The notes under the pieces were generated by a model. The model was not told where the DNA came from. It worked only from the letters and a program-made list of their open reading frames with translations, and searched no databases. The position numbers and the translations under genes are program-made. From positions 563,184 to 627,183 of the forward strand of contig CAVQPG010000004.1 of NCBI GenBank assembly GCA_963714675.1: a stretch of DNA of 64,000 nt, in the 5' to 3' direction. This DNA comes from an uncultured Chloroflexia bacterium. GTDB lineage: Bacteria > Chloroflexota > Limnocylindria > Limnocylindrales > CSP1-4. This document shows positions 23,319-58,694 of this stretch, in pieces. Numbering within the stretch: position 1 is the stretch's first letter; the number at the start of each line of letters is the position of its first letter.

Positions 23319-24737
23319 AGCGACGCAGCCTGCTGCGGCAGGTCCTCGCCAGCACGGCCGGCAAGCTCGGCGTGGCCCTCGCGCTCGTGCTGGGCCTCAC
23401 CTCGACTCTTCGTGCTGCTGACCATGCCACTCGACTTCGGGCCCACGGTCTGGTCGAACCCCGCGGTCTGGGCCGACTATCCCAAGGCCGTGCCGCCGGC
23501 CTGGACGGCGGCCCTCTCGGACGACGCGGTCGAGCACCAGGTCATCGAGGCCGACCAACCCACCGAGGTCACCGAACGCGGCACGGCGCGGGTGGAGGTC
23601 TACGACCTGCCCTACGAGCACACCGCGAACGAGCCGCCGACCTTCCTCTCCTTCAGCCTCGGCGAGGTGACCTTCAGCGAGCGTCCGCCCTCGCTGAGCG
23701 TGACCCTGCTGCGACCCGACGGCACCGCCGTGCCGCTGGTGCGGACGACGGTCCGGGGTCCACGGCCGGACGAGGAGCCACCCTACCGGCGCCACGACCA
23801 GACCCCCCTGCGCCTGCTGCTCACGTCCGAACCCGAGACGGCCGAGGCCGTATCGACGACCCTCGCGGAGGCATACGGCGTGGAGATCCCCGCAGCGCAG
23901 ATCCAGAACGACACGGCCGCCTGGCTCTTCGGCGTGCCCGGCGACGACGGCGAGCCGGAGCCACTCGGGGGTGCGTACGTCACGCAGGTGCGGGTCGCGC
24001 TGGCGGCCCCGGACGACACCGTGGCCTGGGTGCGGACGGTCGTGGGTGGGACCGTCTTCGGTCTGCTGGGCACCGACGGCAGCGGCCGCGACCTCGCACA
24101 GGGCCTCGCCTTCGGCCTGCCGGTGGCCCTGCTCATCGGCCTCGCGGCGGCCACCGTCAGCACCGCCATCGGGACCGGCCTGGGGATGCTCAGCGGCTAC
24201 AAGGGTGGCCGCATCGACCTCGTCATCCAGCGCACCGCGGACGTCGTCAACAACGTGCCCCTGCTGCCGCTGCTGATCTTCTTCGTCTTCGTCTTCGGCG
24301 CCCAGCTGTGGCTGATCCTGCTGCTGCTGGTGGCCTTCAGCTGGCCAGGCCTGGCCATCCTCGTGCGCTCGATGGTGCTGGGGCTCTCGGGCAGCCAGGA
24401 GGTGGAGGCGGCACGCGCCCTGGGGGCCTCATCACGGCACATCCTCGTGCACCACATCTTCCCGCACACGGCACCCTACGTGTTCACCCAGCTCATCTTC
24501 TTCGTGCCCGCGGTCATCCTGGCCGAGGCCGGGCTCTCGTTCCTCGGCCTCGGCGACCCGTCGCTGCCGACCTGGGGCCAGATCCTCGAGGATGGCTTCC
24601 GCACCGGCGCCGTCTTCCTCGGCTACTGGTGGTGGGTGGTGGCCCCGGGGCTACTGATCGTGCTGACGGCGGTGACCTTCATGCTCCTGGCGCTGGCCAT
24701 GGAGCCCATCGTCAACCCCAAGCTGAGGCGCGACTGA
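23315..24737 (+). CDS. Peptide ABC transporter permease (DppC/OppC-like) with a long periplasmic N-terminal domain; 1-nt frameshift after the first TM helix
   Basis: MKRRSLLRQVLASTAGKLGVALALVLGL (frame of ORF 22517) continues as FVLLTMPLDFGPTVWSNP (ORF 23412-24737). Overlapping stop and start: ATGA. Confidence 0.7.
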
Positions 24738-25711
24738 TGGCCCTGCTCGAAGTCCGTGACGTGGCCGTGGAATACAGCACGGAGCGCGGTCCCCTGCGCG
24801 CGGTCGACGGCGTCTCCTTCGACCTCGCCGAAGGTGAGGCCCTGGGCGTCATCGGTGAGTCGGGCTCGGGCAAGACGAGTATGGCCGTGGCCCTGATGCG
24901 CCTGCTGCCGCGCAACGGGACGCTCGTGGGCGGATCGGTCCGACTGGCCGGCGAGGAGCTGACCGCGCTCGACGACGAGACCTTCCGCAGGACGGTCCGC
25001 TGGAGCCGCATGGCGATGGTCTTCCAGGGCGCGATGCACTCGCTCAACCCGGTCGTGCGCGTGGGCGACCAGGTCGGTGAGCGGCTGCGCTCGGACGGGG
25101 TCGACAAGGGCGAGGTCAAGGCACGGGTGGCGGAGCTGCTCACGCGCGTGGGCCTGCCGGCCAGCACGGCCCAGCGCTATCCCCACGAGCTCAGCGGTGG
25201 CATGAAGCAGCGCGTGATGGTGGCCACGGCCCTGACCCACGACCCGCCGCTGCTGATCCTCGACGAACCCACCAGCGCACTCGACGTGAGCATCCAGGCG
25301 CAGATCATGAACCTGCTCAAGGAGCTCAAGGCCGAACGGCGCATCTCGATGCTGTTCATCACCCACGACCTCGCACTGGCCTCCGACCTGTGCGACTCGA
25401 TCGCGGTGGTCTACGCCGGTCAGGTCCGGGAGCTGGGCTCCGCGGAACGCGTGCTCGAGGCACCGGCCGACCCCTATACGCAGCGGCTGCTCGCGAGCAT
25501 CCCCAGCCTCCACGACGCGGTCCCGCCCGACTTCCTGCCGGGTGCGCCGCCCGATCTGCGGGAGTCGATCGCCGGCTGCCGCTTCGCGGCCCGCTGCCCC
25601 CTCGTCTACGAGCCCTGCGGCGAGCCCCCGCCCTACATCGAGGTCGAGCCGGGCCACGGCGCCCGCTGCTGGCGGCACGACCCACGGCGCCGCGCGGGGG
25701 AGCCCGCATGA
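24737..25711 (+). CDS. Peptide ABC transporter ATP-binding protein (DppD/OppD-like)
   Basis: Walker A GESGSGKT, signature LSGGMKQR, Walker B LLILDEPTSALD, C-terminal oligopeptide-transporter domain. Confidence 0.85.
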   Translation: MALLEVRDVAVEYSTERGPLRAVDGVSFDLAEGEALGVIGESGSGKTSMAVALMRLLPRNGTLVGGSVRLAGEELTALDDETFRRTVRWSRMAMVFQGAMHSLNPVVRVGDQVGERLRSDGVDKGEVKARVAELLTRVGLPASTAQRYPHELSGGMKQRVMVATALTHDPPLLILDEPTSALDVSIQAQIMNLLKELKAERRISMLFITHDLALASDLCDSIAVVYAGQVRELGSAERVLEAPADPYTQRLLASIPSLHDAVPPDFLPGAPPDLRESIAGCRFAARCPLVYEPCGEPPPYIEVEPGHGARCWRHDPRRRAGEPA

Positions 25712-26803
25712 GCAGCTGGACCCGGGCGGACGGGCCGCTGCTGCGCATCGAGGAGCTGTCGGTGCGCTTCTACGTGCGCAAGTCGTTCTTCAGCGCGCGG
25801 CCGATCGCCGCGGTGACCGAGGTCTCGCTGGACCTCGCCATGGGCGAGACCGTGGCGGTGGTCGGCGAGTCGGGCAGCGGTAAGACGACGCTGGGCCGGG
25901 CCACGTTGCGCCTCGTGGATGCCGCCGCGGGTCGGGTGGTCTTCGAGGGCACTGACATCGCCGCGCTCGAGGGCGCGGACCTGCGCGCCTTCCGCCACCG
26001 CGCGCAGGCCATCTTCCAGGATCCGTTCTCCAGCCTCAGCCCCTACATGCGCGTGGGCGAGCTGGTCGCCGAGCCACTGGTCATCCACGGGCCGACGGAC
26101 CGCGAGCAGCGCGAAGCGGCGGTCATGCGAGGCGCTCGAGCAGGTGAAGCTCTCGCCGGCCGGGGACTTCGTCGAGAAGTACCCGCACACGCTCTCGGGC
26201 GGCCAGCGCCAGCGGGTCTCGATCGCCCGGGCCATGGTGCTCGAGCCCGACTACCTGATGGCCGATGAGCCGGTCTCCATGATCGACGCCTCGAGCCGCG
26301 CGGAGATCCTGTACCTGCTCGCCGAGCTCCAGGAGCAGCGAGAGCTGACCTTCCTCTACATCACCCACGATCTCGCGAGCGCACGCCACTTCGCCGACCG
26401 CATCGCGGTCATGTATGCCGGGCGCATCGTGGAGCTGGCGTCGGCCGATGTCCTCATCGAGGACGCCAAGCATCCCTACACCAAGGCCTTGCTCGCTGCG
26501 GTGCCTGCCCCGGACCCGGCCAACCGGCTACGACAACGCCCGGTGGTCGGTGGTGAGCCGCCCGATGCGGGCGACCTGCCGCCCGGCTGTGCCTTCGCGC
26601 CGCGCTGCCCGGTGGCCATCGCCGGCACCTGCGAGCGGGAGGTGCCACCGCTGATCGAGCTCGAAGGTGGCCACCAGGTGGCCTGCCACCTCTATCCGGC
26701 CGCCGCGGTCTCCACGGGGTCAGCGGATGCCTCGGCCTCCTCGGCGTCCGAAGACAGCACCTCGAGCGCGGCCAGCAGGAAGGGATCCTCCGCCTCCGGA
26801 TAG
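25708..26803 (+). CDS. Peptide ABC transporter ATP-binding protein (DppF/OppF-like), frameshifted near 26115
   Basis: GESGSGKTTLGR, LSGGQRQR, LMADEPVSMIDAS. The C-terminal ~100 nt overlap the convergent peptidase gene, so the true stop is probably earlier. Confidence 0.7.
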
Positions 26804-28161: not shown

Positions 28162-29793
28162 CTATGGCTGGTTGCAGAGCTCCACCCCGGTACAGGCAGC
28201 ATCGAGCCGAACGGTGCCGACCTGGTCGGGCTGCGGGTAGTTCTGGATGAGCTGCGCGCCGCCGGCGTACTTCACGGTCCACGCGATGAGTTGGCCGACT
28301 TCACCCACCTGGCTGGTGTTGTCGCCGTTGACCTGGACGTTGTCACTGGGCGCATAGACGATGCCCGAGACAGCCAGGTTGCCATTGCCGGGCAGGTTGA
28401 CCGTGTTGTTGGAGGTCGTGCAGCTGCCGATATCCAGGGGCGTCATGCTCCCGGCTCCGCCGAAGCACGCATCATCGCGCGGCACCTCGATGCTGATCAG
28501 CAGGCCCTCATGCGACTTCACCTCACGGCCGAGCCAGTCGAGGGCCGGCAAGGAGCGGCAGCTGTCCTCCGTGCAGGTCTCGCCGCCCTGGTTGATCCTG
28601 AGTGCCACGGAGTTGTTGCCGGCGAGGTCGGCATCCTGTGGGACGACCAGCACGACACCGTTGGCTCCCGTCACGAGACCGCCCATCAGCGTCCCGCCCA
28701 CGTCCAGTCCCTTCTCGCCGAAGTAGTACGCGCCGGGCAGCAGGTAGGCCACGTCCGTGTTCTGGGGCACGTTGAAGCCCTGCTTGTCCATGTACACGCC
28801 GGGCAGGTAGCAGACCACGTCGAACGCCGGGTTGGCCAGGATCGACGTGTAGTCCGATGGGAACCCTTCGGTGCCCGGAGCCGGACACGCCCCGGGACCG
28901 TTGCCGGACACCGCATCCCAGCGTCCGTCTTCCTGGTCGCTGAAGACCGGGGCCGCCGGCAGCCCATCGGCTGGGTCGCCGTCGAAGTCGGCGATCAGGT
29001 AGTCGGGGTCGTGGATCAGCTTGCGAAGGAGCTTGCCCTCCGGAAGCCCGTTGACCTGGTTCCAGGGGTCGGGCGAGATGTCGTCGATGTGGTCGATGCG
29101 GTAGCCCGAGGCGAGCGTGATGCGGCCACCCGAGTTGGTGAAGGCGCTGGTATTGGTGCCGACGTCTCCCCGCGGCACATCGACCCAGGTGTTGGTCCCG
29201 TCGACGCTGATGTTCTCGCGGTTCTGGTCGATGGCGTTGGGGAGTGGATGCGGTGGCCGCAGTGTCTGGACCGCGTACCGGCCGGAGAACTGGAGCCCGG
29301 CCACAGCCGTCGCCTGTACGTTCCAGTTCGCCTGGCCGGCCAGCCGCGCGAAGGTCAGGCCGTACGACGGATTGCGGATGGTGACCTGCACCGACCGCGC
29401 AGGCTCGCAGTCGACACAGCTGGGCGACGGCGTCTTGATCGAGACGAGGTACGGCGTGCCCGGTAACGCACAGCCGACGATGTCGAAGTCGGGCTCACAG
29501 CCACTGCCCGCAGGCGTGGAGGTGGCCCCCAGTCGCTCGACCAGCACGTCCATGGCATGTCCCCTGGCCCGCCCATATTCCACGGTCGTGACCGCCCGGC
29601 TCTTGGCCTTCTGCAGGTCCTGGCCGCCAGCGAGGGCAGCCGCGTCCGCCGTGGTCGTGTAGAAGCGCTCGGCCGAGAGCACACCGGTCACATCGACCGC
29701 CAAAGCTGCGACCAGCAGCAAGGCGGTCATGAACAGCGCGGTCAGCGGAAGGACCTGGCCCAGCTCGTTGCGCGCCATCAGCGGGCCCCTCAA
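28162..29793 (-). CDS. TadG-like protein: Tad/Flp pilus-assembly TadE/G-like N-terminus with a large beta-helix-like extracellular domain
   Basis: N-terminus LTALFMTALLLVAALAVDVTGVLSAERFYTTTADAAALAGGQDL matches the TadG-type membrane anchor. 543 aa with a Gly/Asn/Thr-rich repetitive C-terminus. Confidence 0.6.
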   Translation of the reverse strand: MRGPLMARNELGQVLPLTALFMTALLLVAALAVDVTGVLSAERFYTTTADAAALAGGQDLQKAKSRAVTTVEYGRARGHAMDVLVERLGATSTPAGSGCEPDFDIVGCALPGTPYLVSIKTPSPSCVDCEPARSVQVTIRNPSYGLTFARLAGQANWNVQATAVAGLQFSGRYAVQTLRPPHPLPNAIDQNRENISVDGTNTWVDVPRGDVGTNTSAFTNSGGRITLASGYRIDHIDDISPDPWNQVNGLPEGKLLRKLIHDPDYLIADFDGDPADGLPAAPVFSDQEDGRWDAVSGNGPGACPAPGTEGFPSDYTSILANPAFDVVCYLPGVYMDKQGFNVPQNTDVAYLLPGAYYFGEKGLDVGGTLMGGLVTGANGVVLVVPQDADLAGNNSVALRINQGGETCTEDSCRSLPALDWLGREVKSHEGLLISIEVPRDDACFGGAGSMTPLDIGSCTTSNNTVNLPGNGNLAVSGIVYAPSDNVQVNGDNTSQVGEVGQLIAWTVKYAGGAQLIQNYPQPDQVGTVRLDAACTGVELCNQP

Positions 29794-30272
29794 ACCGGCT
29801 CGGGTTCCATGCGGAACTCAGCAGTAGTCGTCAACTGACCGTCACCTGGCACCAGCGGGAAGAAGATGGGGATCTGGTGTTCGATCTGGACCTGCACCCA
29901 CGCTTCGTCCTGGTTGGACGCTGGTGGACAAGGCTCTCCGGTGTCCCGAGGCCAGGACACCTCGACCTTGTTCGTGGTGCCGGTCCCTCCGTTGGCCCAC
30001 AGGTCCGTGGAGTAGCCGAAGAGCGTGGAGTTGGCTGCGATGTCGTTGGCTGCCTGGGTGACCAGCGACGTGTTGCCGTCACAGTAGGTCTGCGTCGCAG
30101 CCCAACGGCCGGTGTCACGTGCGATCTGGGTCAGCGTCTGCTGTGACCAGAAGATCAGCCCGAACTGGACGATGCCGGCCACCAGGAAGAAGAAGACGGG
30201 TATCACGAGCGCGAACTCGGCCAGGGCCTGGCCACGCTGGTCCACGGTGGACGGATGTCTCGTCGGGTCCAC
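29790..30272 (-). CDS. TadE-like pseudopilin-type protein
   Basis: RGQALAEFALVIPVFFFLVAGIVQFGLIFW, the TadE-family N-terminal motif. 160 aa. 4-nt overlap with the TadG-like gene. Confidence 0.7.
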   Translation of the reverse strand: MDPTRHPSTVDQRGQALAEFALVIPVFFFLVAGIVQFGLIFWSQQTLTQIARDTGRWAATQTYCDGNTSLVTQAANDIAANSTLFGYSTDLWANGGTGTTNKVEVSWPRDTGEPCPPASNQDEAWVQVQIEHQIPIFFPLVPGDGQLTTTAEFRMEPEPV

Positions 30273-30687
30273 GACGCTTCCCCACCGATCGCGCCGCTGC
30301 CCTTCGCAGCATGTTCATGTTGTTGCCTCGTTGCGGCGATATCTGCCGTGCTGCAGGCGAGCACGACCTCTGACGTGATGCCACGGGCGCATCCGCCGCG
30401 GGTCGATGGCCAAAGGCTAGGGGGAAACGCGCGACACGGGCAGAGCACCTTGGGGCCATGCCCACCGTACGACCGTCCGGCGGGGCGGCCAGGCGCCCTC
30501 GCTCCGGGCCAGGGATCCACTCGTTCGCCGCGTTCCGCTCGAACGCTTCGCGCAGCTTGTGCCTGTGGTCGACAATGGACCCTGACAAAGCATCGAAGGT
30601 CGCGGGCAGAACGGCACTTGCCGCTCTCTCGAGGCACAGGCGATCGTTGGCTACGCCGAGTCCACTCGGCAGAAGGGAGGCTCGTCG

Positions 30688-31299
30688 GTGTTCGACACCA
30701 CCGCCGCGGACACGATCTTCCTGGTGTGCGCGCTCGTCGGCGGCGGCCTGCTGCTCATCACCGTCCTGCTCGACGACATCCTCGGCGGCATACTCGAGGT
30801 GCTCGACTTCGATGTCGGCGGCAGCTCGTTCGTGCCCATCCTGCTCGCCTTCGTGGCCATGTTCGGCATCGGCGGCCTGTTCGGCACGCAGGTCCTCGAC
30901 CTCAGCAGCGGGCAGGCGGCGTTCGTGGGCGTCATCGCCGGCCTCGGCGGGGCGGCGCTGGCGTATGGCATGTTCCGCTTCCTGCGCAGCGCCGTGACCG
31001 AATCGCCGTTCTCGCAGGACGATCTCGTGGGCCGCGACGCCTACGTCTCGGTGGCCATCCCCAAGACCGCCTGGGGCACTATCTCGATGGAGGTCGAGGG
31101 CATGACCCAGGAGTTCCGCGCCACCTCCTCGGTCGACATCGACCGCGGCCAGATGGTGCACATCAGCGGCGTCGCCGGCAACGGGCTCATCGTCGAACCG
31201 GCGACGGCCGCGACGACCGAGCCCGAGGCTCCCGACCGGCACCGAACCCGATACCACCGCATAGCCCTGCGCGGGCGGCAGACCGGCCGCCTGCGCTGA
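30688..31299 (+). CDS. NfeD-like (YuaF/YqiJ-type) membrane protein with a C-terminal OB-fold
   Basis: GTG start with a GGGAGG RBS. Two or three TM helices, then the OB-fold signature DLVGRDAYVSVAIPKTAWGTISMEVEGMTQEFRATSS...GQMVHISGVAGNGLIVEP. Confidence 0.7.
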   Translation: MFDTTAADTIFLVCALVGGGLLLITVLLDDILGGILEVLDFDVGGSSFVPILLAFVAMFGIGGLFGTQVLDLSSGQAAFVGVIAGLGGAALAYGMFRFLRSAVTESPFSQDDLVGRDAYVSVAIPKTAWGTISMEVEGMTQEFRATSSVDIDRGQMVHISGVAGNGLIVEPATAATTEPEAPDRHRTRYHRIALRGRQTGRLR

Positions 31300-31324
31300 C
31301 GTCCCCGCAGCAGGAGTAGGAGCC

Positions 31325-32759
31325 ATGGAAATCGGCAGCGAAGTCCTCATCATCTTCGGCATCATCGTCATCGCGGTGCTCATCGCGATGTTCGTGAGCT
31401 CGCGCTACAAGGTCGCGAGCGCCAACGAGGCGCTCGTGCGCAGCGGCCAACGCGGCAAGGGTGAGGAGCTCAAGGTCGTCCGCGGTGGCGGCATGATGGT
31501 CATCCCGCTGCTCCACGACCTCGGCCGGCTCAAGCTGACCGCCCGGCAGATCTCCGTACAGCTGACCGACGCGGTCACCAGCCAGGGCATCAAGGTCGCG
31601 CTCGAAGGCGTGGCCACCTTCAAGGTCGGCGCTGACGAGACGTCGATCCGCAACGCCGCCGAGCGCTTCCTGCAGACCGATGAGGCAGAGGTCGACGACA
31701 TCGTCAAGAACGTCCTCGAGGGCTCGCTGCGGTCGATCGTCGGCACGCTCACCGTCGAGGAGCTCAACCTCGACCGACAGAAGTTCCAGCAGGCCGTGCA
31801 GTCGGCCGCCATCGGCGACCTGGCCACCTCCGGCCTGGTCATCGACAGCTTCACCATCCAGGCCATCGGCGGCGAGGCCCTCCAGTACATGGAGCTGGTC
31901 GGCCGTCAGGAGCTGGCCCGCCGCGAGCGCGACGCACGCATGGCCCAGGCGACCGCCGACCAGGAAGCCCGCGTCCGCGAGGCCGAATCCGAGCAGATCA
32001 AGCTGAACGCGGAGCGGGGCGTCCAGCTCCGTGAGGCCGACGTCAAGCAGGAGACCGACACGGCCCGCGCCAAGGCCGGGCAGGCCGGTCCGCTGGCCGA
32101 GGCCCAGGCCACGCAGGAGGTCGTGAAGGAGCAGACCAAGCTGGCCGAGCTGGCTGCCGAGCGCAAGGCCAAGGAGCTGCTCGCGAGCACCGTGCGGCCG
32201 GCGGAGGCGGAGGCGGAGGCCGTGGTCAAGCGTGCCGACGGCGACCGCCTCGCGGCCATCGCCGCGGCCCAGGCCGAGGCCGAGAAGATCCGCCTCCGGG
32301 GCGAAGCCGAAGCGACGATCATCCAGGCGCAGGGACAGGCGGAAGCGGCCGCCCTGGAGATGCGAGCGGACGCCTACAAGCACTTCAACGATGCGGCCAT
32401 CCTGGCCACCATCCTGCGCGACCTGCCCGGCCGTCGTGAGCGCAGCGGCCGACCCCATCGGCAAGATCGACAACCTGACGGTGCTCTCCACCGACGGGGC
32501 CTCGGAGATCGTGCGCACCGCCACCACCAACCTGACCCAGGCCGGTCACGCCATCAAGGGCCTCACCGGCATCGACATCCCGCAGGTCTTCGGCAACGCG
32601 CTCGACAACGCCAACCTCACCGGCACGTCAGAGGAGCGGGCCCTCCGGGCCCGGACGGAGCCTGCGACCGCGACTGAGGTGGACCTGGCCGCCGGCAACG
32701 AAGGCACGGCGCCCACAGAAGAAAGCGGCCCGGACGAGGCCGAGCCGCAGGAGGACTGA
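31325..32759 (+). CDS. Flotillin (SPFH-domain, FloT/YuaG-like), C-terminal frameshift near 32440
   Basis: N-terminal TM, SPFH domain, long Ala/Glu-rich coiled coil. The C-terminus DLPAVVSAAADPIGKIDNLTVLSTDGASEI continues in ORF 32232-32759. The nfeD-flotillin pairing is conserved. Confidence 0.8.
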
Positions 32760-33029
32760 ACCGAGCGCGTCGCGCCCGAGTTCCTCGGTCAGTCGGTGCC
32801 GAACGACACCTTGCAGGTCATCGTGGCCTTGCCATTCTTGGTGACCGTGGCATGTGAATCCGGTCGTGAGCATGAGCCCTTGCTCGCGCGGCAGGTACAC
32901 GTAGCACATGAACCCGGAGTAGTGCTGGGTGCGCCCGCTGTCGTTGGCGGACCTCGCCCTGACAGGTCATGACCGCAACGTGGTCGTTCTGGACGACATG
33001 CGTGAGGGTACCTAGCGCCACCGAGGAGC

Positions 33030-33170
33030 TCACCCTTCGAACCCGCACTTGCCATCCCGCAGTGCGCCCAGGTCGCGGACGACGATAGCCGGATCGGCGG
33101 AGGCCGGGACGGCCACCAAGACCGTCGAGGCCAGGGCCACACCGAGAGAGAGGCTGATGATCTTGCGCAC
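33030..33170 (-). CDS. Small secreted peptide ORF not in the ORF track: Sec signal peptide plus a 21-aa mature peptide; possibly the start of a longer frameshifted Cys-rich secreted protein
   Basis: GTG start preceded by GGAAGGAGAG. Encodes VRKIISLSLGVALASTVLVAVPASA|DPAIVVRDLGALRDGKCGFEG. High-GC3 coding-like segments continue in two other frames down to 32789 (...CATCTCRASKGSCS...TMTCKVSFGTD). Confidence 0.35.
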   Translation of the reverse strand: MRKIISLSLGVALASTVLVAVPASADPAIVVRDLGALRDGKCGFEG

Positions 33171-33286
33171 GGCTGCGCTCTCCTTCCCGCGCCCGCTACG
33201 TGCTGATCGTTCGGCCCGCGGGCGTTCGGGCCGAGGTGCGTTTCAGGCAGAGTCCTGTTCGACAGGCTCAGTGCCGGAGTTCGACC

Positions 33287-34372
33287 TCACCGGTGGCGTC
33301 GAACTTGAACGAGCCGCCGGGGGCATCGCAATACTTCTTCGTCGGGCTCGGACGGGTCCTGGCAGGCGAGCTCGTCGACTCGATAGCCTTGCAGCCACTT
33401 GGCGTGCTCGGTACCTGAGCCCGTGAGGACGATGGCCCCGTAGCCCACGATGTCGTAGTACGCGTTCGTGCCGTTGGCGTTCGGGTCCAGGGGCGTGCTG
33501 TAGATCGGCACCCACACGGGAACCTTGTTGTCGATGTAGTGGCTGAGGTCGCCCCATTCGTTGCCGGTCAGTGCGCCGATCTTGTTCTCGTTGACCTCGC
33601 CGTTGGGACCAGGCTCACCGACTCGTCCGCAACAGCCGTGCGAGTTCGGCTCAGGCCAGATCTGCGATTGCAGGAAGGGCTGGTTGCCCTGACAGCCGCC
33701 ATCGGCGACCATGCCCAGGCTGTAGCCCCAATCGCACTTGCCGCCGTTGCCGTCGAGCCCGAACTTCAGCCAGCCGAAGTTGCCGGGCGCGATGAGCTCG
33801 CCAGGCGTCAGCGCCTGGAAGCAGCTGCCCAGGGTGTGAGCATCGCAATCAGAGAGGTCGTTGTAGGTATCGTCTTCGATGCCCACCGGCAGGATGCCGC
33901 CGCCCGTGCTCTCTCCAGTGGTCATGGCCGTGGCTGTGGCGCCGGCGATCCAATCGGTGATGCCGATCGCCCCGAGCAGGAAGGGTTGCCAGTTGGTGCG
34001 TGCCTCGACGACGACGCCGAACGCGTCGTCGGGGATGCTGGTCTCGGTGGTGACATCCCCGAGATCGACACCGGTGTGGTCGACGTACCGGGCCGAGACG
34101 ATCTCGCTGTCGTTGGCGGCAAGCGTCGAGGTGATGGCCTCGCGGACGTTGGCAACGGTGCCCACGCCGGCTGGCCGGCCCGTGATCGACGCGCCGATGA
34201 TGCGCGCACCGGCCATGGCCGCGAAGTCGGCCGCGTTCTGTGCTTGGCGGCGCTGGGCGAAGGCATAGCCGCCGTCGACCACGACCGCCGAGGCGAGGAC
34301 GATGGCCGTGAGCGAGATGGCGAACAGCGCCAGCGCCTGGCCCCGCTGTCGTTCCCGAAGGGACGTTCGCAT
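33287..34372 (-). CDS. TadG-like protein (TadE/G-like N-terminus plus a Cys/Gly-rich extracellular domain)
   Basis: N-terminus RGQALALFAISLTAIVLASAVVVDGGYAFAQRRQAQNAADFAAMAGARI. 361 aa. The C-terminal end may be frameshifted. Confidence 0.6.
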   Translation of the reverse strand: MRTSLRERQRGQALALFAISLTAIVLASAVVVDGGYAFAQRRQAQNAADFAAMAGARIIGASITGRPAGVGTVANVREAITSTLAANDSEIVSARYVDHTGVDLGDVTTETSIPDDAFGVVVEARTNWQPFLLGAIGITDWIAGATATAMTTGESTGGGILPVGIEDDTYNDLSDCDAHTLGSCFQALTPGELIAPGNFGWLKFGLDGNGGKCDWGYSLGMVADGGCQGNQPFLQSQIWPEPNSHGCCGRVGEPGPNGEVNENKIGALTGNEWGDLSHYIDNKVPVWVPIYSTPLDPNANGTNAYYDIVGYGAIVLTGSGTEHAKWLQGYRVDELACQDPSEPDEEVLRCPRRLVQVRRHR

Positions 34373-34382
34373 CGCTGTCTCC

Positions 34383-34969
34383 CTAGTTGATGATCATCGT
34401 CGCGGAGCCGCTGAGCGACGTCGATCCGATGAACGAGCTGACGATGGGCGTGAATAGGTCGTAGGTGTACTCGACGCGCACGCTCACCAGCTCCCCAGTC
34501 GCAGAGACCGGATTGCCCGCAGCCGTCGTCGCATCCGTTGCCGCCGACGACCTCGGTCCAGGCCCCGATGGGCGCCAGATCCACGCCGCTCCCGTCGTTG
34601 CAGCTGACATACACGGAGGTGATCGGGCCCACGGCCACGGTCATGCGCTGGACCGCGTCGGAGATGTGCGACTTGAACGCATCGAGGTCCACCGGGCACA
34701 CGTGTGCGCCGGGCCGACTCGACGTGATGCCACTCTCGTCGGGCACGCACGCCGGATGGGTCGAGCCGATCCAGCGTGCCTCGGCCGCAGCGAGGCGAGC
34801 TCCTTCACGAGCGGCCTGCGAGAGCGTGGAGTTGGTGTAGACCAGGCGGCCGACGTCGACCAGGCCGAACACGACCAGCAGGAAGACCGGCAGCACGAGG
34901 GCGAACTCGACCAGCGTCTGGCCACCTTCGTGTCCTTGACGGTCGCTGCTGGTCGCGATGGCCGAACAT
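34383..34969 (-). CDS. TadE-like pseudopilin-type protein, split by at least two frameshifts
   Basis: ATG overlaps the upstream stop (TGATG). Reconstructed: MFGHRDQQR | QGHEGGQTLVEFALVLPVFLLVVFGLVDVGRLVYTNSTLSQAAREGARLAAAEA... | ...ELVSVRVEYTYDLFTPIVSSFIGSTSLSGSATMIIN. Confidence 0.55.
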
Positions 34970-35855
34970 CAGTTGTTGTCCACCGCCATGTCCGACGAGC
35001 AGAGGACGATCGAGTTCGCCGTGAGGGTCTGGCTCTGGATCTTCAGCGTGCCGGCGAGGTTCGTGAGCGTCCCGGTGAAACCGGCACGTTCCCACACTTC
35101 CTCCGCGGATACGCCCCCGACATCATTCCAGTGGGTGTGCCAGTAGTTGGGCACGCTGCACGTGGGGGTGGGCGTCGCCGTGGGCTCCGGCGTTGGCGGT
35201 CGGTTCGGGCGTCGGCGTCGGGGTGGGCACCGGGATGCCGGGCGTCGTCGGCGACGGCGTGGGCGTCGGAGAGGGGTCGGCGTTGGCGTCGGTGCGAGCG
35301 TCGGAGACGGGGTAGGCGTGGGCTCCGGCGTTGGGGTCGCGATCGCCAGGATCTGCGTCACCGCGGGGTTCAGGACCGGCGCCGTCGCCGAAGCAGACAG
35401 CGTCAACTGTCCGCCGACGATGTCGCCGATGAGCGGCGTCAGGAAGGTGAAGGGCCGGCTCGCCGACACCGACACGCGGTTGCCGGAGCCGGCGGCGAAG
35501 TTGGCGGCTGTATTGCAGGCCATCGTGGTGCCCGACGTCGGCTCGAAGCATGTGGGAGCGGTCACACTCAGGGCGCCCTCGCCTCCCTGGCCCTGGACGT
35601 TCGCCTCGGTCGGCAGCCGCGCGAGCCACGTTGGACTCGAACGCTGGTCTGGTTGTAGTCCCAGTCGGATGCATGGGTGGCCGCGTAGAACGCGCCCTCC
35701 CGTGCAGCATTGTTGACGGCCACGTAGGTGAAGAACAGCCGGCCGAAGTCCACGGCCAGCAACATGATCACCAGCATCACCGGTGCCACAAGCGCGAACT
35801 CGACCAGTGCCTGACCACGCGCGGAGTCGCGGGCAGAGCTACGGCGAGACAGCAT
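34969..35855 (-). CDS. TadE-like protein with a Pro/Thr-rich linker and a C-terminal PASTA-like domain; frameshifted
   Basis: N-terminus MLSRRSSARDSARGQALVEFALVAPVMLVIMLLAVDFGRLFFTYVAVNNAAREGAFYAAT. Linker PTPEPTPTPSPTLAPTPTPTP. C-terminus CSVPNYWHTHWNDVGGVSAEEVWERAGFTGTLTNLAGTLKIQSQTLTANSIVLCSSDMAV. Confidence 0.55.
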
Positions 35856-36110
35856 CGCTTCGGCGGGTCCTTTCTTCCAGGTCTACACATGGCTCGGATC
35901 GCCAGGAAGAGTCGCTAGGGCGCGGGCGTTCCGACCGGATAGGTGTAGAAGATGCCCCGTCGAGGACCCGACTGGCGCCTATACGGATGGCCCCCGTGCG
36001 GTCGTACGACCGGGGGCCCGGACCACACCTATGCGCGCCTCACCACACCAAAGCACACAGCCGGAACCGACGAACGTCTCACGACGCGGGCTGCGGTGCA
36101 GTAGACAGGG

Positions 36111-36159
36111 CTATCTATCTATGTTGCGCTATCTATCTATGTTGCGGCCACTTGTGGCC
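36111..36159. repeat. Perfect 18-bp tandem duplication (ctatctatctatgttgcg x2) abutting a 6-bp-arm palindrome ggccacTTgtggcc, inside a lower-GC 600-bp intergenic island
   Basis: Read directly at 36111-36146 and 36146-36159. Lies between the stop of the TadG-like gene (36461) and the start of the TadE/PT/PASTA gene (35855). Confidence 0.8.
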
Positions 36160-36460
36160 AACGACCTGGCGACGTGGCTTTGGGCGGGTTACAGCTCTAT
36201 GCCGAGCAGGGCTTGCGGTTCTGGGCTGGCGGGAACCGGAAACCGTCGTCGACATCCCACAAGCCCTTCGGCGCCGCGTTGGTCCTCAAGACGCACCAGG
36301 AGGAGACCCCACGTCGGTGTTCTGCGAGACTTCCGCGCCTTAGTCGTGGTGCCTCAGCTATTTGTCCGTGTTACGCGCCGGGCCGGTGCACACCGCGTAG
36401 AGCGCGGGACGAAGAGGCTGTCCGCCCAGATGTACAACAGAGTGCCCGTCCGAAATGCCG

Positions 36461-37717
36461 TTATCGACCCGTGCCTTGCGCTCCTTCTTGTGGGCACTCA
36501 GTGAATGAGCTGAATACCGATGAAGTTCGTGGGAGATGGATAGTCGGATCGCCGGGGTCGTAGAGCGGCCCAACCGTCGTGTTCTGGTAGACGTCCTCCA
36601 CGAAGGTTCCCACCAAACAGGACGTGCCGCCGCTGCCCGAGGGCGTACTTGGGTCGTTGTCGTCACACTCGGAGGAGTTCTGGCCGGTCAGGTAGGACCC
36701 ATAGGGCGTGCAATTGGTCGGATTGTCCGGCCCTCCACATAATCGGAATGCACCGACGCCTACGAAGTGGTACCAGTTGTTCTGTCCCTGACCCCCGTTG
36801 CACTTCTCTTCCTCGGTTTCTGGGTCATAGCCCGGGTCTTCCTCGCAGGTGTCATCGAATAGCGGGATATAGACTACGTCGCCGTCCAATGAGCGCAGTG
36901 CATCCTGCACCTGCTTGCTGTTTATGTTTCCCGTCGAGGTCACGTAGTTCCATGAGGGCACGGTAATGCCGTCATTGCAGCCTGGGGTGTTGAAGGGGTC
37001 CTCGATGCAAGACGCGGAGTTCGCTCGTTCCTCCAGCGGTGGGGGTCCAATCGATCCAACCCACGTTGCCGGAAGCCGCGTTCTGGCAGAGCGGGATCTT
37101 GTACAGGGTTCCCGCTTCCCAGGGCATGGGCTTCCCAAAGTCAGGATGTTCTGGGTCAGGATTTTCTGGGAAGAACGGCCTGTTCTGGCCGTCGCATGCC
37201 ACGATGTTGATTGGTGGTGTGACTGGCAAGACCCCGAAGCGCGGAGACCCACTCTCGCCGGTGATGGCAGTGGCGCTCGTGACCGCGGTGAAGGTGTCGA
37301 GGCCGAGCACGCGTGCGAAGTAGGATCCGAACTGTCGCTCACCAGTGACGGCGACTCCAGCCGCCCCTTCTGGTATGACACCGGAGGGGTTCCCGACCGA
37401 TGTCGGCATGGGTTCCCCGTTGATGTTTGTGTATACGGCCTCCTGGACAGTGACCTGCATATCGGACGCGGTCGCGCTGAGCGCGGCCAGCACGTCGTCG
37501 TCGGATCTCGACTCTCCCCCCAATCGCTCGGCCAGCACGGTCGTCCCGGCAAGTGCCGCCGCGTCGGTGCCGTTCTGCGTCCACCGCTCCTGCGCCCAGA
37601 CGTTGCCGCCATCGACTACGAGGCCGATCATCGCGATGATCGCCAGGATCCGATCGCGAATAGTGCCAGAACCTGCCCTCGCTCGCTTTGGCGTCGGTCT
37701 CTTGAAGAGGCTGACAT
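36461..37717 (-). CDS. TadG-like protein, frameshifted near 37630
   Basis: ATG at 37717 with an AGGAG RBS: MSASSRDRRQSERGQVLALFAIG joins MIGLVVDGGNVWAQERWTQNGTDAAALAGTTVLAE (ORF 36972-37631) and the Cys-rich C-terminal part in ORF 36461-37612. Confidence 0.55.
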
Positions 37718-37749
37718 GTTTCGTCTCCTGTGTCTGGGGCTCAACGTGA

Positions 37750-38214
37750 CTACTCTGGGTCGGCGAAGAGTCGTTCGACTGGCATCGTGGTCGATGCCTC
37801 TAGATCGAACGGGTCGAAAATCAACGAGGCCAGCGGCGTAATCGGCGTCCACGTGTGTCTGACGGTGACGGTGATGTCGCAGCCACTCGTCTCACAGGTG
37901 TCGCTGTCGAGGGCATCGAGATCATCGATCTCGGCGGAAGTAACGCCAAAGGCGCCACCGTGATCCACGGCAGCACACTTGAAGGTTCGCACAGAGACGC
38001 AGTCAGTCGCGTCGTTGCTCTGGTTGACGATGGCTACGCGGGCCCCCTCCCGAGAGGCGTTCGCCAACGTGGTGTACTCGATGACAAGGCGTCCACCATC
38101 GATGAGGCCGAAGACAAGAAGCGCGAAGATGGGCAAGGCAAGGGCGAACTCGACCAATGATTGGCCGCCACTTTGCGAGGGCGCCACTTTCGTCAGAGAG
38201 ATCCTCATGTTCAT
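37750..38214 (-). CDS. TadE-like pseudopilin-type protein
   Basis: SGGQSLVEFALALPIFALLVFGLIDGGRLVIEYTTLANASREGARVAIV. 154 aa, intact. Confidence 0.7.
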   Translation of the reverse strand: MNMRISLTKVAPSQSGGQSLVEFALALPIFALLVFGLIDGGRLVIEYTTLANASREGARVAIVNQSNDATDCVSVRTFKCAAVDHGGAFGVTSAEIDDLDALDSDTCETSGCDITVTVRHTWTPITPLASLIFDPFDLEASTTMPVERLFADPE

Positions 38215-39221
38215 GGCTTTCCGCCACCGGGATTTGGACCCACAGTAATCTCCGAGGCGCAGTCCACTTCAGTTGGGCCGCCCACGAGCGACTGAGATTG
38301 GATGGTGTAGTCCTGGCCTGCCGGCGGGCGGAAGATGACCGAGGTCGTGAACCCCGCTTCATCCCAACTTGCCTCAGCGAGGCTCTTGAGCGTGCCTGAG
38401 AAGTTGGGGACCTCACACGTCAGCGGATCCGAGGGTGGCTCTGCGTTTACGTCGACAAGGACATCAAGTGAGAGCGAATTCTCGCAAGCCGTTCCCTCGT
38501 CCACAGTGAGCGTTACCGCATACGTCCCGTAGTCGGCGTATTCATGCACATCCGGTGTTCTCCGATTCTCCTGTGAGGTCGTCCCCGAAGTCCCAGTTCC
38601 ACGTATCAGGCCCGCCCGTTGAGGTATCCGTGAACTGGACGAAGTGCCAATCGTCTCCATTCGGGAACGACCATGTAAAGCCAGGTTCGGGACAGGTTGG
38701 AGGCGGGTTCTGTTCCTGATCCAACGTTCATACCGGTTGGAATTCGTGAAGACCGAGCGCGCACTAACCGAGAATCTGTTGCCAGACGCAGCGAAAATCT
38801 CGCCGATGATCGGCGTGATAGGTCGGAACTCGCAATCCAACTTGAGCGCAACAGGGTCGCCTAGATCCTTGCCATCGGGGAACTCGGGCGCGGGAATGGT
38901 CTCATCGCATCCGATCAGTGATGCCTCACCCTCGGCGCGCGCTCCAGACAGATGCTGGTACGTCGACTGCTCGGTCGCATCTCCAGGGGAACCCCACGCG
39001 GTGGAGTGAGTGGCCGCATAGTTAGCACCGACACGAGCCGCGTTGTTCAGGACCACCCAGCCTTGGAAGACACGCCCGAAATCGATCGCAGCGAGAACGA
39101 TAAGCAGCAGCACTGGGATGACAAAGGCCAGCTCCACGATCGCTTGCCCACTCGACCGCCACTGGGACTCAGACTTGTACGCGGTGTGGCGTGTTCGCAG
39201 CATGATGGCGAGTCGTTTCAC
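38211..39221 (-). CDS. TadE-like protein fused to PKD-like and PASTA-like domains; frameshift inside the PKD domain near 38560
   Basis: N-terminus SGQAIVELAFVIPVLLLIVLAAIDFGRVFQGWVVLNNAARVGANYAAT. PKD halves WHFVQFTDTSTGGPDTWNWDFGDD | HEYADYGTYAVTLTVDEGTACENSLSLDVLVDV. C-terminus CEVPNFSGTLKSLAEASWDEAGFTTSVIFRPPAGQDYTIQSQSLVGGPTEVDCASEITVGP. Confidence 0.55.
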   Translation of the reverse strand: MKRLAIMLRTRHTAYKSESQWRSSGQAIVELAFVIPVLLLIVLAAIDFGRVFQGWVVLNNAARVGANYAATHSTAWGSPGDATEQSTYQHLSGARAEGEASLIGCDETIPAPEFPDGKDLGDPVALKLDCEFRPITPIIGEIFAASGNRFSVSARSVFTNSNRYERWIRNRTRLQPVPNLALHGRSRMETIGTSSSSRIPQRAGLIRGTGTSGTTSQENRRTPDVHEYADYGTYAVTLTVDEGTACENSLSLDVLVDVNAEPPSDPLTCEVPNFSGTLKSLAEASWDEAGFTTSVIFRPPAGQDYTIQSQSLVGGPTEVDCASEITVGPNPGGGKP

Positions 39222-39550
39222 TGGCTTGCTCCGGGTGGCTAGTCATTGGGATCATACCGAGGCTGCATCTCAGCACGGGACTGTCAGACCACGGTGCCGA
39301 GACGTTGCAGTGAATGGTAAGGGGCCCCAGTACCAATGTGCTAGTGCCTTCGCTATAATTCCGCTGACCGTAGTCAACGGGTCCCGTACCCAATTACCTC
39401 GCCGCCACGCGCGAGTCCCAGAACTGAGTGACTCCAGAATGAGTCGCTCAGTGGCGAGGCGAGAACGCTACGGCGGAGTGGGCTACTCGCCTTGAGGTTG
39501 TCGCGCGGCACCTGGGTCGGGCAGCAGGCCACGCTCGGTTGGCCGTAAGC

Positions 39551-40132
39551 TCACGAGGCCCCGAGCTGGCCGTCCGTTAGGCGATTTGCCACCTCTTCTA
39601 CGCGTCGGGCGCGAGTATCGGCTCGTCTGGCCGTCGCAATCGATAGCAAGGAGCCACGCTGGGCGGACGGCGAGAGAGCGGCCCACCGGTCGCGCGCGCC
39701 GGGCCTGGCATCGAATGCTGCCGCCAGATCGTCGGGCACGCTCAGGTCCTCGACCGGCTCGAGGATGGTCCATGAACCGTCGGCCTTGGCGCGCTCGATG
39801 GCGGCACGGCCGGCGTCGGTCATGCGGCCCTCGGCCTCCAGCCGCTCCACACGCGCCTTGTTGGTACGTGCCCACATCGAGCCCTTGCGCCGCGGCGACC
39901 ACCACAGCGCACCACGCTCGTCGTCGATCCGTCGGTAGGTGGAGTCGATCCAGCCGAAGCAGAGCGCCTCGCACACGGCGTCCTCGTAGTCGATGGCTGG
40001 CTTGCCGGTGCGCGGCTTGTACTGGACCAGCCACACGCCCTGCGGCTGACGGTGATGTTCGGCCAGCCAGGCGCGCCACTCGGCCGCGGTCGTGAAATGG
40101 AGCTCCTCGGCCTCGTCCATGACGCGGCTCAT
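39551..40132 (-). CDS. YdeI/OmpD-associated family protein (DUF1801-like)
   Basis: Internal start MSRVMDEAEELHFTTAAEWRAWLAEHH...WIDS..., the family hallmark. The N-terminal Arg-rich extension of the ORF is rejected. Confidence 0.55.
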   Translation of the reverse strand: MSRVMDEAEELHFTTAAEWRAWLAEHHRQPQGVWLVQYKPRTGKPAIDYEDAVCEALCFGWIDSTYRRIDDERGALWWSPRRKGSMWARTNKARVERLEAEGRMTDAGRAAIERAKADGSWTILEPVEDLSVPDDLAAAFDARPGARDRWAALSPSAQRGSLLSIATARRADTRARRVEEVANRLTDGQLGAS

Positions 40133-44472: not shown

Positions 44473-44685
44473 GGTTTCCCGGGGGCACCGACCCGGCCGC
44501 GCTGACGGTGTCGGGACGAAGGCCAGGGTCAGCGGGACGTCTGCGCCCGAGGTCCGGGCCAGTATCATGGGGGCAGTCACACCGACCCCTCGGAGCCCAC
44601 CTGGGCAGGCCACGCCTGCCCAGGAACCACGCCGGGCCGCTCCAGCCTCCCGCTGGGCGAGCCCTCAGCCCTAGGAGCGCACATC

Positions 44686-46781
44686 TTGGACGGCACTATC
44701 ACGCCCTTCGATCAGAAGAGGGCCATCGACACCATCCGCATCCTCTCCATCGACGCGATCCAGCAGGCCAACAGCGGCCACCCGGGTGCACCCATGGGCG
44801 CGGCGCCGATGACCTACGCGCTGTGGACCGCCTTCCTCAAGCACGCCCCCACGCGCCCCGACTGGTTCGACCGCGACCGCTTCGTGCTCAGCGCCGGCCA
44901 TGCCAGCATGTTGCTCTACTCGATGCTCCACCTGACCGGCTACGACCTGCCGCTCGAGGAGCTCAAGCGCTTCCGCCAGCTGGGCTCCAAGACCCCGGGA
45001 CACCCGGAGTACGGCCTGACCGCCGGAGTGGAGGCCACCACCGGTCCGCTGGGCCAGGGCTTCGCCAACGCCGTCGGCATGGCCATGGCCGAGCGACGGC
45101 TGGCCGCCGAGTTCAACCGGCCCGGGCACGAGATCATCGACCACTGGACCTACACCCTCTGCTCCGACGGCGACCTCCAGGAGGGCATCGCGGCCGAGGC
45201 GGCCAGCCTCGCGGGCCATCTCGAGCTGGGCAAGCTGGTGGCGCTCTACGACGACAACGGCATCCAGCTCGACGGCCCCACCTCCATGGCCTGGTCGGAA
45301 GATGTGCTGGCCCGCTTCGACGCCTACGGCTGGCACACGCAGCGTGTGGACGGCGAGGATGTCGCGGCCATCACGGCGGCTATCGAGGCCGCGCGCGCCG
45401 ACGACCGCCCGTCGCTCATCAGCGTCAGGACCATCATCGGCGTCTGGCGCTCCCAACAAGGCCGGCACGCACAAGGTCCACGGCTCGCCCCTGGGTGCTG
45501 ACGAGGTGGCTGCCACCAAGGTGGCCCTGGGCTTCGACCCCGAGGCGTTCTTCGCGGTCGACCCCGACGTGCTCGGCCACTTCCGCGGTGCCGCCGAGAC
45601 CGGTGAGGAGCTGGTGGCGGCGTGGGAGCAGCGCCTGACCGCCTACACCGAGGCCTTCCCCGACGCCGGCGCCGCATTGCGTCGCCGCATCGACGGCACC
45701 CTCGCCCAGGACTGGGACGCCGACCTGCCGTGGTACTCCACGGAGGACGACGCGCTGGCCACGCGCAACGCCTCGCAAAACGCCATCGCGGGGCTCGAGG
45801 CGCGCGTGCCCGAGCTCTTCGGCGGGTCAGCCGACCTCTCGAGCTCCAACCTCACCGACATCGCCGACGCGGGCGACTTCAGCGCCGACGAGAGCGGTCG
45901 CAACATCCGCTTCGGCGTGCGCGAGCACGCCATGGGAGGCATCGCCAACGGCATCGCCTATCACGGCGGGCTGCTGCCCTACGTGGCCACGTTCCTGCCC
46001 TTCAGCGACTACATGCGTGGCTCGGTCCGCCTGGCGGCCCTGTCGGGCCTGCATGTCATCTATGTCTGGACCCACGACTCCATCGGCGTCGGCGAGGACG
46101 GGCCGACCCACCAGTCGGTCGAGCACTACGCGGCCCTGCGGGCCATCCCCAACCTGACCTTCGTCCGCGCGGGCGATCCCAACGAGGCCTCGGCCGGCTG
46201 GGCGCTGGCCGTCGAGCACCAGAGCGGACCGGTGGCCATGGTCTTCACGCGCCAGAAGCTGCCGGTGCTGCCCGGGCACCGCCGAGCTGGCCCGCGATGG
46301 TGTCCGCGCCGGCGGCTACGTGCTGGCCGAGGCGGTCGCTCCCGACGGCACCGCCACCGCGCCCGAGCTCATCCTGCTGGCCACCGGCTCGGAGCTGCAC
46401 CTGGCCATGGGCGCACGCGAGCTGCTCACCGCCGAGGGTCGCAAGGTACGCGTCGTGTCGATGCCCAGCTGGGAGCGCTTCGAGGCGCAGCCGGCGGCCT
46501 ACCGCGACGAGGTCCTGCCGCCGGCGGTGACCGCGCGCGTGTCCATCGAATCGGGCGTGTCGTTCGGCTGGGACCGCTGGGTGAACCAGCGCGACGGCGC
46601 CATCGTCGCCATCGATCGCTTCGGCATGAGCGCACCTGCTCCCCAGATCTTCGAGCAGTTCGGTCTCACCGTGGAGCACCTGGCCGAGGTCGCGCGTGGC
46701 GTCCTCGCGGGTGACGTGCGCGGTGTCATCTCCCCCGCTGCCGACCACGCCGGCAGCACCCCGAAGGCGGAGGGCCGCTAG
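44686..46781 (+). CDS. tkt: Transketolase, split over three frames by two frameshifts (near 45470 and 46290)
   Basis: TPP-binding N-terminus [12 protein letters not shown]...[18 protein letters not shown], Pyr domain [13 protein letters not shown]-terminal domain in ORF 46320-46781. Confidence 0.85.
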
Positions 46782-49440: not shown

Positions 49441-49451
49441 GAGCCTCGGCG

Positions 49452-58692: not shown

Positions 58693-58694
58693 GG

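Follow-up and report, generated by a model that had tools for sequence, protein, structure and literature searches.

Three candidate Tad pilus tip modules encoded apart from pilus machinery in an uncultured member of the Limnocylindria (Chloroflexota)

Introduction

The tip complexes of type IV filaments are currently thought to decide whether a filament is built at all and what it binds. To our knowledge, multiple exchangeable tips on Tad pili have been worked out so far only in Myxococcus. Here we describe eight genes for Tad-type minor pilins, designated A through H, which lie in three groups within a 64,000-nt stretch of DNA (referred to below as the window) from an uncultured Chloroflexia bacterium (contig CAVQPG010000004.1 of assembly GCA_963714675.1, positions 563,184 to 627,183). 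The reading that we favor, with a probability of roughly three in four, is that these genes encode three alternative tip (initiation) complexes of a Tad/Flp type IVc pilus, with the genes for the motor, the platform and the major pilin located elsewhere in the genome.

Tripartite tip complexes have been proposed from genetics and structure modeling for TadE/F/G, KilL/M/N and CpaJ/K/L (PMC12075869, PMC12607857, PMC13533445). In these proposals TadG or CpaL is a PilK/GspK-like apex subunit, by way of a C-terminal beta-strand that completes the pilin sheet. TadE and TadF are processed by TadV at the motif G/xxxxEF (PMC12075869, PMC12607857, PMC13533445). The Kil Tad pilus of Myxococcus xanthus is the closest described parallel to the present locus, with four paralogous KilL/KilM/KilN tip sets, most of which do not adjoin the machinery (PMC12075869).

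The resemblance to Kil (PMC12075869) extends to several features. Both have several TadE/TadF/TadG-like sets per genome, mostly off the machinery, an arrangement in which one machine would serve exchangeable tips; in both, the large TadG-like subunit has a variable C-terminal domain that is proposed as the extremity, and both include Cys-rich proteins. At least two paralogous sets, some of them unlinked to machinery, are the mark of Kil-type organization, and the window has three sets, none with machinery in the 64 kb. The differences are equally plain. The window comes from the Chloroflexota (class Limnocylindria), whose tad locus shows no secretin; two of its three modules stand in tandem, one module has two genes, and one occupies a cassette slot. 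PKD and PASTA-like domains are also found on the TadE-type subunits of the window, its modules have no link to predation or to a partner like the type III secretion-related T3SS* of Myxococcus, and vWA domains are lacking in A, C and F.

With CpaJ/K/L of Caulobacter and TadE/F/G of Aggregatibacter the window shares the combination of two small pilins carrying Glu5 and one large pilin-like protein, as well as the G/xxxxEF motif (PMC12607857, PMC13533445). As with CpaL and TadG, the large protein would take the place of PilK/GspK; it contains a big insertion, and the nearly invariant end of the C family may correspond to their conserved C-terminal beta-strand. However, CpaL and TadG have a vWA domain with a MIDAS (an adhesion site that depends on metal ions), whereas A, C and F give no vWA match, and the canonical minor-pilin genes lie inside the tad or cpa operon as one set per machine, whereas the window has three sets off the machinery. 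A more distant parallel is provided by GspK, PilX and PilK of the T2SS (the machinery for type II secretion) and of type IVa pilus systems (PDB 3ci0), in which a subunit lacking Glu5 caps a minor-pilin trimer at the apex, as is proposed here; these proteins have no detectable sequence relationship to those of the window, and both the inserted domains and the machinery differ.

An earlier reading of this DNA from the letters alone (the first-pass annotation) had called the locus the least conventional part of the window. That assessment does not hold, since paralogous TadE/F/G sets apart from the machinery are known for the Kil pilus (PMC12075869) and TadG/CpaL is described as the tip apex (PMC13533445, PMC12607857). 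The finding is sound and only moderately new: the arrangement has already been described in Myxococcus, and the window extends a known kind rather than springing a surprise. Its interest lies in the appearance of Myxococcus-type multi-tip logic in the distant, uncultured and environmentally abundant Limnocylindria, for which we found no literature on pili, and in the placement of binding-type domains (PKD, PASTA-like), which are not confined to the TadG-type subunit but occur on the small TadE-type ones too.

Eight minor pilin genes in three modules

All eight open reading frames (ORFs) were found at the positions, on the minus strand and in the three blocks reported by the first-pass annotation, and its division of them into five TadE-type and three Tad/TadG-type genes was borne out by profile hidden Markov models (HMMs) from Pfam. 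Against PF07811 (TadE; gathering cut-off 22.9 bits), B scored 54.4, D 68.7, E 56.8, G 55.7 and H 52.7 bits, and against PF13400 (Tad; gathering cut-off 22.3 bits), A scored 34.4, C 34.6 and F 36.5 bits, with D, F and H scored as frame-stitched proteins (see below). An NCBIfam scan gave sub-threshold matches only; for NF041390 (TadE_Rv3655c, cut-off 40 bits) the best score was that of D, at 26.7 bits, and the others reached at most 17 bits or gave none. A vWA-type TadG identity for A, C and F was considered and rejected, as no vWA family matched them in Pfam at E <= 0.01.

The N-termini also contain the motifs that had been quoted for them, including the shared G|Q junction (the bar marks the predicted cleavage site). 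The five TadE-type proteins read G|Q(A/T/S)(L/I)(V/A)E(F/L)A, with Glu at +5, in agreement with the motif processed by TadV, G/xxxxEF, behind a basic leader of short length; the three TadG-type proteins have no Glu5 and show G|Q(A/V)L(A/P)L(F/T), where position +5 is hydrophobic. The same two patterns recur in a set of 86 loci from related genomes (given L numbers where they need to be told apart). Sorting N-termini into those with and without Glu5 by a filter of our own, we found G-1, Q+1 and F+6 kept across about 280 TadE-like N-termini, and L, I, M or V at +5 in the TadG-like ones. The mean net charge over the 15 residues preceding the Gly is +2.8 in the related loci.

The genes form three operon-like modules, transcribed in the order B-A, E-D-C and H-G-F, each combining one or two TadE-type minor pilins with Glu5 and one large TadG/CpaL-type pilin without it; junctions within modules are overlaps of 1-4 nt or gaps of 10-32 nt. 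Module 1 consists of B (29790..30272, a short TadE-type minor pilin of 160 aa with G|QALAEF) and A (28162..29793, a putative TadG-type apex minor pilin of 538-543 aa with G|QVLPL), the stop of B lying at most 11 nt from the start of A or overlapping it. Module 2 begins with E (34969..35855), a long TadE-type minor pilin of about 294 aa. Its stop is overlapped by 1 nt by the ATG of D (34383..34969, a short TadE-type minor pilin of about 194 aa with G|QTLVEF), and D ends 10 nt ahead of C (33268..34372, a putative TadG-type apex minor pilin with G|QALALF, about 365 aa long once a single frame break is mended). In module 3, H (38211..39221, a long TadE-type minor pilin that reaches about 330 aa when two frame breaks are mended) is overlapped at its stop by 4 nt by the start of G (37750..38214, a short TadE-type minor pilin of 154 aa with G|QSLVEF), and F follows (36461..37717, a putative TadG-type apex minor pilin of about 420 aa with G|QVLALF). 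All of these features are on the minus strand, and A, C and F each lack Glu5. A profile search with the C family recovered the same order of long TadE, short TadE and TadG-like gene, at near-fixed spacing, from about 50 Chloroflexota loci.

No Tad machinery in the window

A canonical tad locus carries TadA/CpaF, TadB/TadC, TadZ, Flp and TadV alongside one another, and no such locus exists in the 64 kb. The first-pass annotation had said as much, and four kinds of search agree with it. Six-frame regular expressions found no GxTGSGKT (the Walker box of the T2SSE ATPase family), no GxGDxK (the A24 peptidase motif) and no Flp motif. The tblastn program found no match in the window for CpaF, TadB, TadC, TadZ, CpaB, ParA and Flp from Anaerolineae tad loci, nor at E <= 0.01 for Flp, CpaB, TadZ, CpaF, TadB, TadC and the two-component system from the Limnocylindria themselves. 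Pfam returned housekeeping families only on the 40 other ORF segments, and no prepilin peptidase was found in the window, a search that covered the motif and, for Pfam, the main ORFs only.

The machinery might conceivably be encoded just past an end of the 64 kb, which would make this an ordinary split tad locus. We regard this as extremely improbable. The distance from modules 2 and 3 to the right end of the window is about 25-28 kb and to the left end about 33-36 kb, and module 1 is separated from the left end by about 28 kb. The genes between the modules and the window ends are all housekeeping genes, and this housekeeping context is syntenic down to relatives whose C proteins are 56 % identical, where tad genes are absent. 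The comparison with close and mid-distance relatives (L001-L004), which had been suggested as a check, found the context kept and no tad genes within 10 kb; tad genes are likewise missing within 10 kb of nearly all of 79 related loci (about 75 of 79). In addition, where the tad locus of the class was found, it has a different neighborhood, made up of a mannosyltransferase-like gene, a LuxR-type two-component system, DUF192, ComF, HPF and AP endonuclease. The number of modules at the syntenic loci varies, with three in L001, two in L002 and one each in L003 and L004.

Tad loci in relatives

The first-pass annotation had expected a peptidase and the rest of the machinery to be encoded elsewhere in the genome. 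Relatives in the class do carry a complete flp-cpaB-tadZ-tadA-tadB-tadC set at another site, and homologous modules stand in cis with it. In L038 the gene order is tadB, tadC, an OmpR-type regulator, a histidine kinase, a first module (TadE/PKD, TadE, F-type TadG), DUF192, a ComF-like gene and a second module (TadE/PKD, TadE, C-type TadG), and the C-type TadG is 41-42 % identical to C of the window. A search with the TadC of L038 yielded 120 homologues with identities of >= 82 %, some of which bear the name Candidatus Limnocylindria, and the contexts of two of these homologues led to the complete tad loci of L084 and of L085/L086. These begin with a LuxR-type histidine kinase and response regulator pair and continue with Flp (PF04964, 61 aa), CpaB/RcpC, TadZ (a receiver plus ParA), TadA/CpaF (T2SSE), TadB and TadC (two T2SSF proteins), a second response regulator and histidine kinase pair, and one or two TadE-TadE-TadG modules. 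The Flp pilin of the Limnocylindria reads ...EEG|QTLVEYGL, a cleavage context identical to that of the window's TadE-type proteins. Further afield, in the Anaerolineae, homologues of the TadG-type N-terminal domain adjoin flp copies or sit within a full tad locus (L061, L077, L080). The class Limnocylindria thus possesses a Tad machine accompanied by one or more modules in cis, to which the window adds further modules encoded in trans.

L038 itself (DASRYM010000091.1) is labeled 'Candidatus Zixiibacteriota' at NCBI. Its TadC is 86-92 % identical to proteins labeled Candidatus Limnocylindria and its modules match the Limnocylindria family, so the taxon label is probably wrong.

As an alternative to a tip function, the first-pass annotation had raised the idea of a surface-protein family that co-opted the prepilin signal without forming a pilus, its prepilin-like N-terminus serving as a signal-anchor in the membrane. 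The missing machinery, both in the 64 kb and within 10 kb on either side of about 75 of the 79 related loci, would suit such a family, and so would the adhesin-like C-terminal domains (PKD, PASTA-like, beta-solenoid). A plain anchor would nevertheless need none of G-1, Q+1, Glu5 and Phe6, all of which are strictly kept, and the triplets always combine Glu5 subunits with one subunit lacking it. In L038 and L084-L086 the same triplets are linked in cis to tad genes, following tadC downstream, the Flp G|QxLVE(Y/F) site is alike, and the structural models are pilin-like; relatives of the TadG-like N-domain in the Anaerolineae adjoin flp, cpaB, tadZ, tadBC and cpaF. For these reasons we set the co-option idea aside as very unlikely. 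For annotators there is a caution here, in that 'orphan' TadE/TadG clusters are no evidence of a machinery-free system.

In more distant relatives (L019, L022, L023, L026, L028, L031, L032, L035, L036, L040, L042, L049, L050 and L060) the trans modules have an OmpR-type regulator (54-57 % identical) and a histidine kinase as neighbors. This pair is homologous to the one that separates tadC from the cis module in the tad locus, which suggests, on sequence grounds, a duplicated unit consisting of a two-component system plus a tip module. The pair is missing from the window modules. At L084, directly upstream of the tad locus, there is also a gene for a 523-aa membrane protein (303-1874) with a weak match to PMT (protein mannosyltransferase), a possible candidate for pilin glycosylation.

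Reading frames and the quality of the sequence

The window has a GC content of about 69 % and is part of a nanopore-style metagenome-assembled genome (MAG) of the Chloroflexota, class Limnocylindria. Homologues of its proteins bear the names 'Candidatus Limnocylindrales/Limnocylindria bacterium' or 'uncultured Chloroflexia bacterium' and originate from the Microflora Danica long-read MAGs. One database protein, P0121, equals A at 100 % identity, and P0244 (361 aa), a member of the 90 %-identity cluster of C, is encoded on the same contig as P0121.

Only A, B and G are uninterrupted. The other five genes require about 11 single-base frame corrections, at roughly 33340 in C, 34940 and 34524 in D, 35644, 35608, 35272 and 35196 in E, 37649 and ~37025 in F, and ~38735 and 38555 in H. 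Could these be decaying remnants of former tad loci? Besides the number of disruptions across five of the eight genes, the frameshift at the 3' end of C might seem to favor decay, being common to the window and to L001, a 94 %-identical contig that was assembled independently. Yet comparable frameshifts affect genes of an essential or housekeeping kind: oppD/oppF (encoding the oligopeptide ABC ATPases) and the genes for transketolase, PGI and G6PDH are distributed over two or three frames apiece (housekeeping examples lie at 24735-26803, 44506-46778, 46782-48493 and 49407-51132), and pervasive single-base indels of this kind are typical of an unpolished long-read MAG. The alignment of window and L001 has 92 gaps over 12.8 kb. 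L001, moreover, is broken mostly at positions other than those of the window, with A and D disrupted but E intact at 294 aa, F at 412 aa and H at 349 aa; the third-position GC tracks the stitched frames, and dozens of genomes contain intact, well-conserved orthologues. Because the housekeeping genes are hit alike and L001 is broken mostly elsewhere, we attribute the frame breaks in the five genes to assembly error, and a pseudogene origin appears highly improbable. Gene or pseudogene calls anywhere in the window therefore require frame correction, and frameshifts in long-read MAGs can give TadE/TadG genes a decayed look.

Features of the individual proteins

The AlphaFold2 model of A is well defined (predicted local distance difference test score, pLDDT, 94.8; predicted template modeling score 0.89) and combines a helix at the N-terminus with a pilin-like sheet and an extended beta-solenoid. 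For C, an intact homologue was modeled instead (P0005, 79 % identical, 107 sequences; pLDDT 88.5), which gave a 59-residue N-terminal helix followed by beta structure without a strong PDB relative. These models of TadG-type proteins show a pilin-like fold, with a long N-terminal helix on a beta-sheet and a large inserted or distal domain.

The distal domain of C is Cys-rich, and eight cysteines are invariant across the family. In all other homologues the C-terminus reads ...YCxAPGGxFxxDVTGEVQL; in the window this end is encoded in another frame, which stops at 33271. The terminal P-GG-F...TGEV-L is nearly invariant in the family and is modeled as strands 350-352 and 358-361. Identity to the L001 counterparts is high for C (97 %), for E (97 %, to the intact 294-aa orthologue) and for B (90 %), and D is 77-82 % identical to intact orthologues in L002, L005 and L014. 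Directly downstream of C lies a small ORF (32792-33242, minus strand) with a signal-peptide-like N-terminus (…RKIISLSLGVALASTVLVAVPASA…) and without a Pfam match, probably frameshifted; L001-L004 have unannotated ORFs of 123-210 aa at the matching position.

The long TadE-type proteins carry additional domains behind the pilin core. In E, a Pro/Thr linker leads to a C-terminal domain with two Cys; in H, the corrected sequence has a complete PKD domain (PKD_4, PF18911, 42.3 bits against a cut-off of 27; PKD, PF00801, 25.0 bits against 23.5) followed by a C-terminal domain of the same kind. This domain is about 60 residues long, with two Cys plus P, W and F invariant across many orthologues. PASTA is its commonest sub-threshold Pfam match; PF03793 (cut-off 23.2 bits) matched five of 21 members, all below threshold, with a best E of 0.0013, and all five matches of a PDB profile search were PknB PASTA repeats at E of 0.034-1.1. 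Because the PASTA HMM stays under its cut-off and the PDB matches have such E values, we call the domain 'PASTA-like' only; it appears distantly alike.

The best structural match of A is ComZ of Thermus thermophilus (PDB 6qvi, PMC6561018), the tip pilin of a type IVa competence pilus in a diderm, at a sequence identity of 11 %. This match, together with the fact that partner machinery in the window's own genome is unobserved, raises the question of whether the minor pilins or pseudopilins serve another type IV filament machine, T4a/Com-like or unrecognized, rather than a Tad pilus. Competence genes could be cited in the same sense, namely comEC/rec2 (Competence and metallo-beta-lactamase domains) at the left edge of the window (3-1769, plus strand) and a ComF-like gene with a double zinc ribbon after the tad locus in relatives (L084, 16532-17152; L038, 7468-8139). 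Even so, the Pfam families TadE and Tad are Tad-specific, the class has homologous modules linked in cis to tadB/tadC/tadA and flp, the window proteins share their cleavage context with its Flp pilin, and genes of PilB, PilC or PilM type were found near none of the 86 loci. Service to a different filament machine is accordingly improbable.

In conjunction with the ComZ-like fold of A, comEC in the window and the ComF-like gene at the tad locus hint by analogy that the Tad pili of the class may serve DNA uptake, as Tad pili do in Micrococcus luteus (PMC4322843).

A variable cassette in the third module

Besides the modular logic of two or three genes and the explanation of frame breaks as general assembly noise, one observation goes beyond what the first-pass annotation had noticed: the third block is a site of strong divergence. 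Between breaks located by blastn against L001, the slot from 36063 to 39682, which comprises module 3 plus its edges, is unalignable with L001 by megablast, and the flanking DNA is 93-95 % identical. The proteins at the same positions in L001 are only 48 % (F), 51 % (G) and 38 % (H) identical, and G and H are closest to those of distant genomes (L016, L024, L044), not to those of L001. Modules 1 and 2 have a GC content of 66.5-67.5 %, module 3 only 60.3 %. L002 has a duplicate of its C-type module in this slot instead. Judging from these sequence comparisons, module 3 behaves as a low-GC cassette that would have been exchanged among genomes with flanks of 93-95 % identity.

The left edge of the unconserved region (~36063) falls within the spacer between modules 3 and 2 (35856..36460). 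A repeat finder detected a perfect 18-nt tandem duplication (GCTATCTATCTATGTTGC x2) at 36110-36145 in this spacer, about 50 nt from the break in similarity to L001, and a 72 % copy of the repeat is present at 36357-36374.

A similar imbalance between machinery and tips is seen at the tad loci proper. Between L084 and L085/L086, CpaF is 92-95 % and TadC 85 % identical, whereas the TadG-like proteins in cis are only 27 % identical; F of the window is 34-36 % identical to TadG-like genes in cis with tadABC (L085, L038). Across members of the Limnocylindria, machinery is conserved at 85-95 %, whereas tip proteins fall to 27-50 %.

A model for alternative pilus tips

Cleavage, complex formation, tip location and ligands are what we infer from the observations described above, along the following lines. 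Each module would supply one large protein of TadG/CpaL/KilN type together with TadE/TadF-type minor pilins, either one or two, that bear a class-III signal, and a prepilin peptidase of TadV/CpaA type would cleave both kinds of subunit behind the Gly. The two or three proteins are then expected to bundle in the membrane through their N-terminal helices, with the TadG-type subunit that lacks Glu5 at the apex, analogous to GspK, PilK and CpaL, and this bundle may prime the polymerization of Flp by TadA/B/C. Remaining at the tip of the fiber, the complex would display the domains specific to its module, that is, the beta-solenoid of A, the Cys-rich domain of C, another domain in F, and the PKD and/or PASTA-like domains of E and H. 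With three modules, one of them in a fast-changing slot, a single conserved machine could thus produce pili of differing binding specificity.

Several points weigh against this picture of three alternative tip complexes. Formation of complexes by the proteins of a module is proposed by analogy, using models of monomers, and module 1 holds a single TadE-type gene. The tad locus of the window's own genome is deduced from relatives in the class; L084 and L001 come from one metagenome assembly but may represent different organisms. The A24 prepilin-peptidase motif was found in none of the 86 loci, and no prepilin peptidase was seen within 10 kb of any tad locus or module. Finally, five of the eight genes have frameshifts, and the one at the end of C, being shared with L001, is possibly real.

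A bolder and rather doubtful extension of the model concerns what the exchange of tips might be for. The fixed slot beside a conserved module may hold horizontally replaced tip cassettes that retarget one conserved Tad pilus in this abundant uncultured class of soil and freshwater. The displayed domains (PASTA-like, PKD, ComZ-like or ice-binding-like solenoid) might recognize peptidoglycan, polysaccharide or DNA of other cells, and the pili might then serve contact-dependent interaction with neighboring bacteria, or DNA uptake, rather than simple adhesion.

Other genes of the window

Modules 1 and 2 are separated by an NfeD-like gene and an SPFH/flotillin gene on the opposite strand (30688..32677, plus strand). 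The flotillin gene scores 89 bits for Band_7, and the NfeD match, at 21.7 bits, is under its cut-off. The pair is present in L001 and L002 and absent from L003 and L004, and we did not adopt it as part of the system, given that these single-module relatives are without it.

The Pfam matches on the remaining ORFs, in addition to ComEC and the NfeD/flotillin pair, comprise an HD-domain protein, EamA, a racemase, NadD, Obg, Rho, transaldolase, CTP synthase, two ABC uptake systems, a BNR protein, an S41 peptidase, OmdA, Indigoidine_A, a pentose-phosphate operon, ModE/ModB, an SbcCD-like pair, an aldehyde dehydrogenase and an aminotransferase. The SbcCD-like pair (56161-60191, minus strand) consists of an SbcC-like AAA protein of 853 aa and an SbcD-like metallophosphoesterase, and a small ORF with a four-Cys zinc-ribbon-like motif begins near 60100 on the plus strand; both are unrelated to the tip modules.

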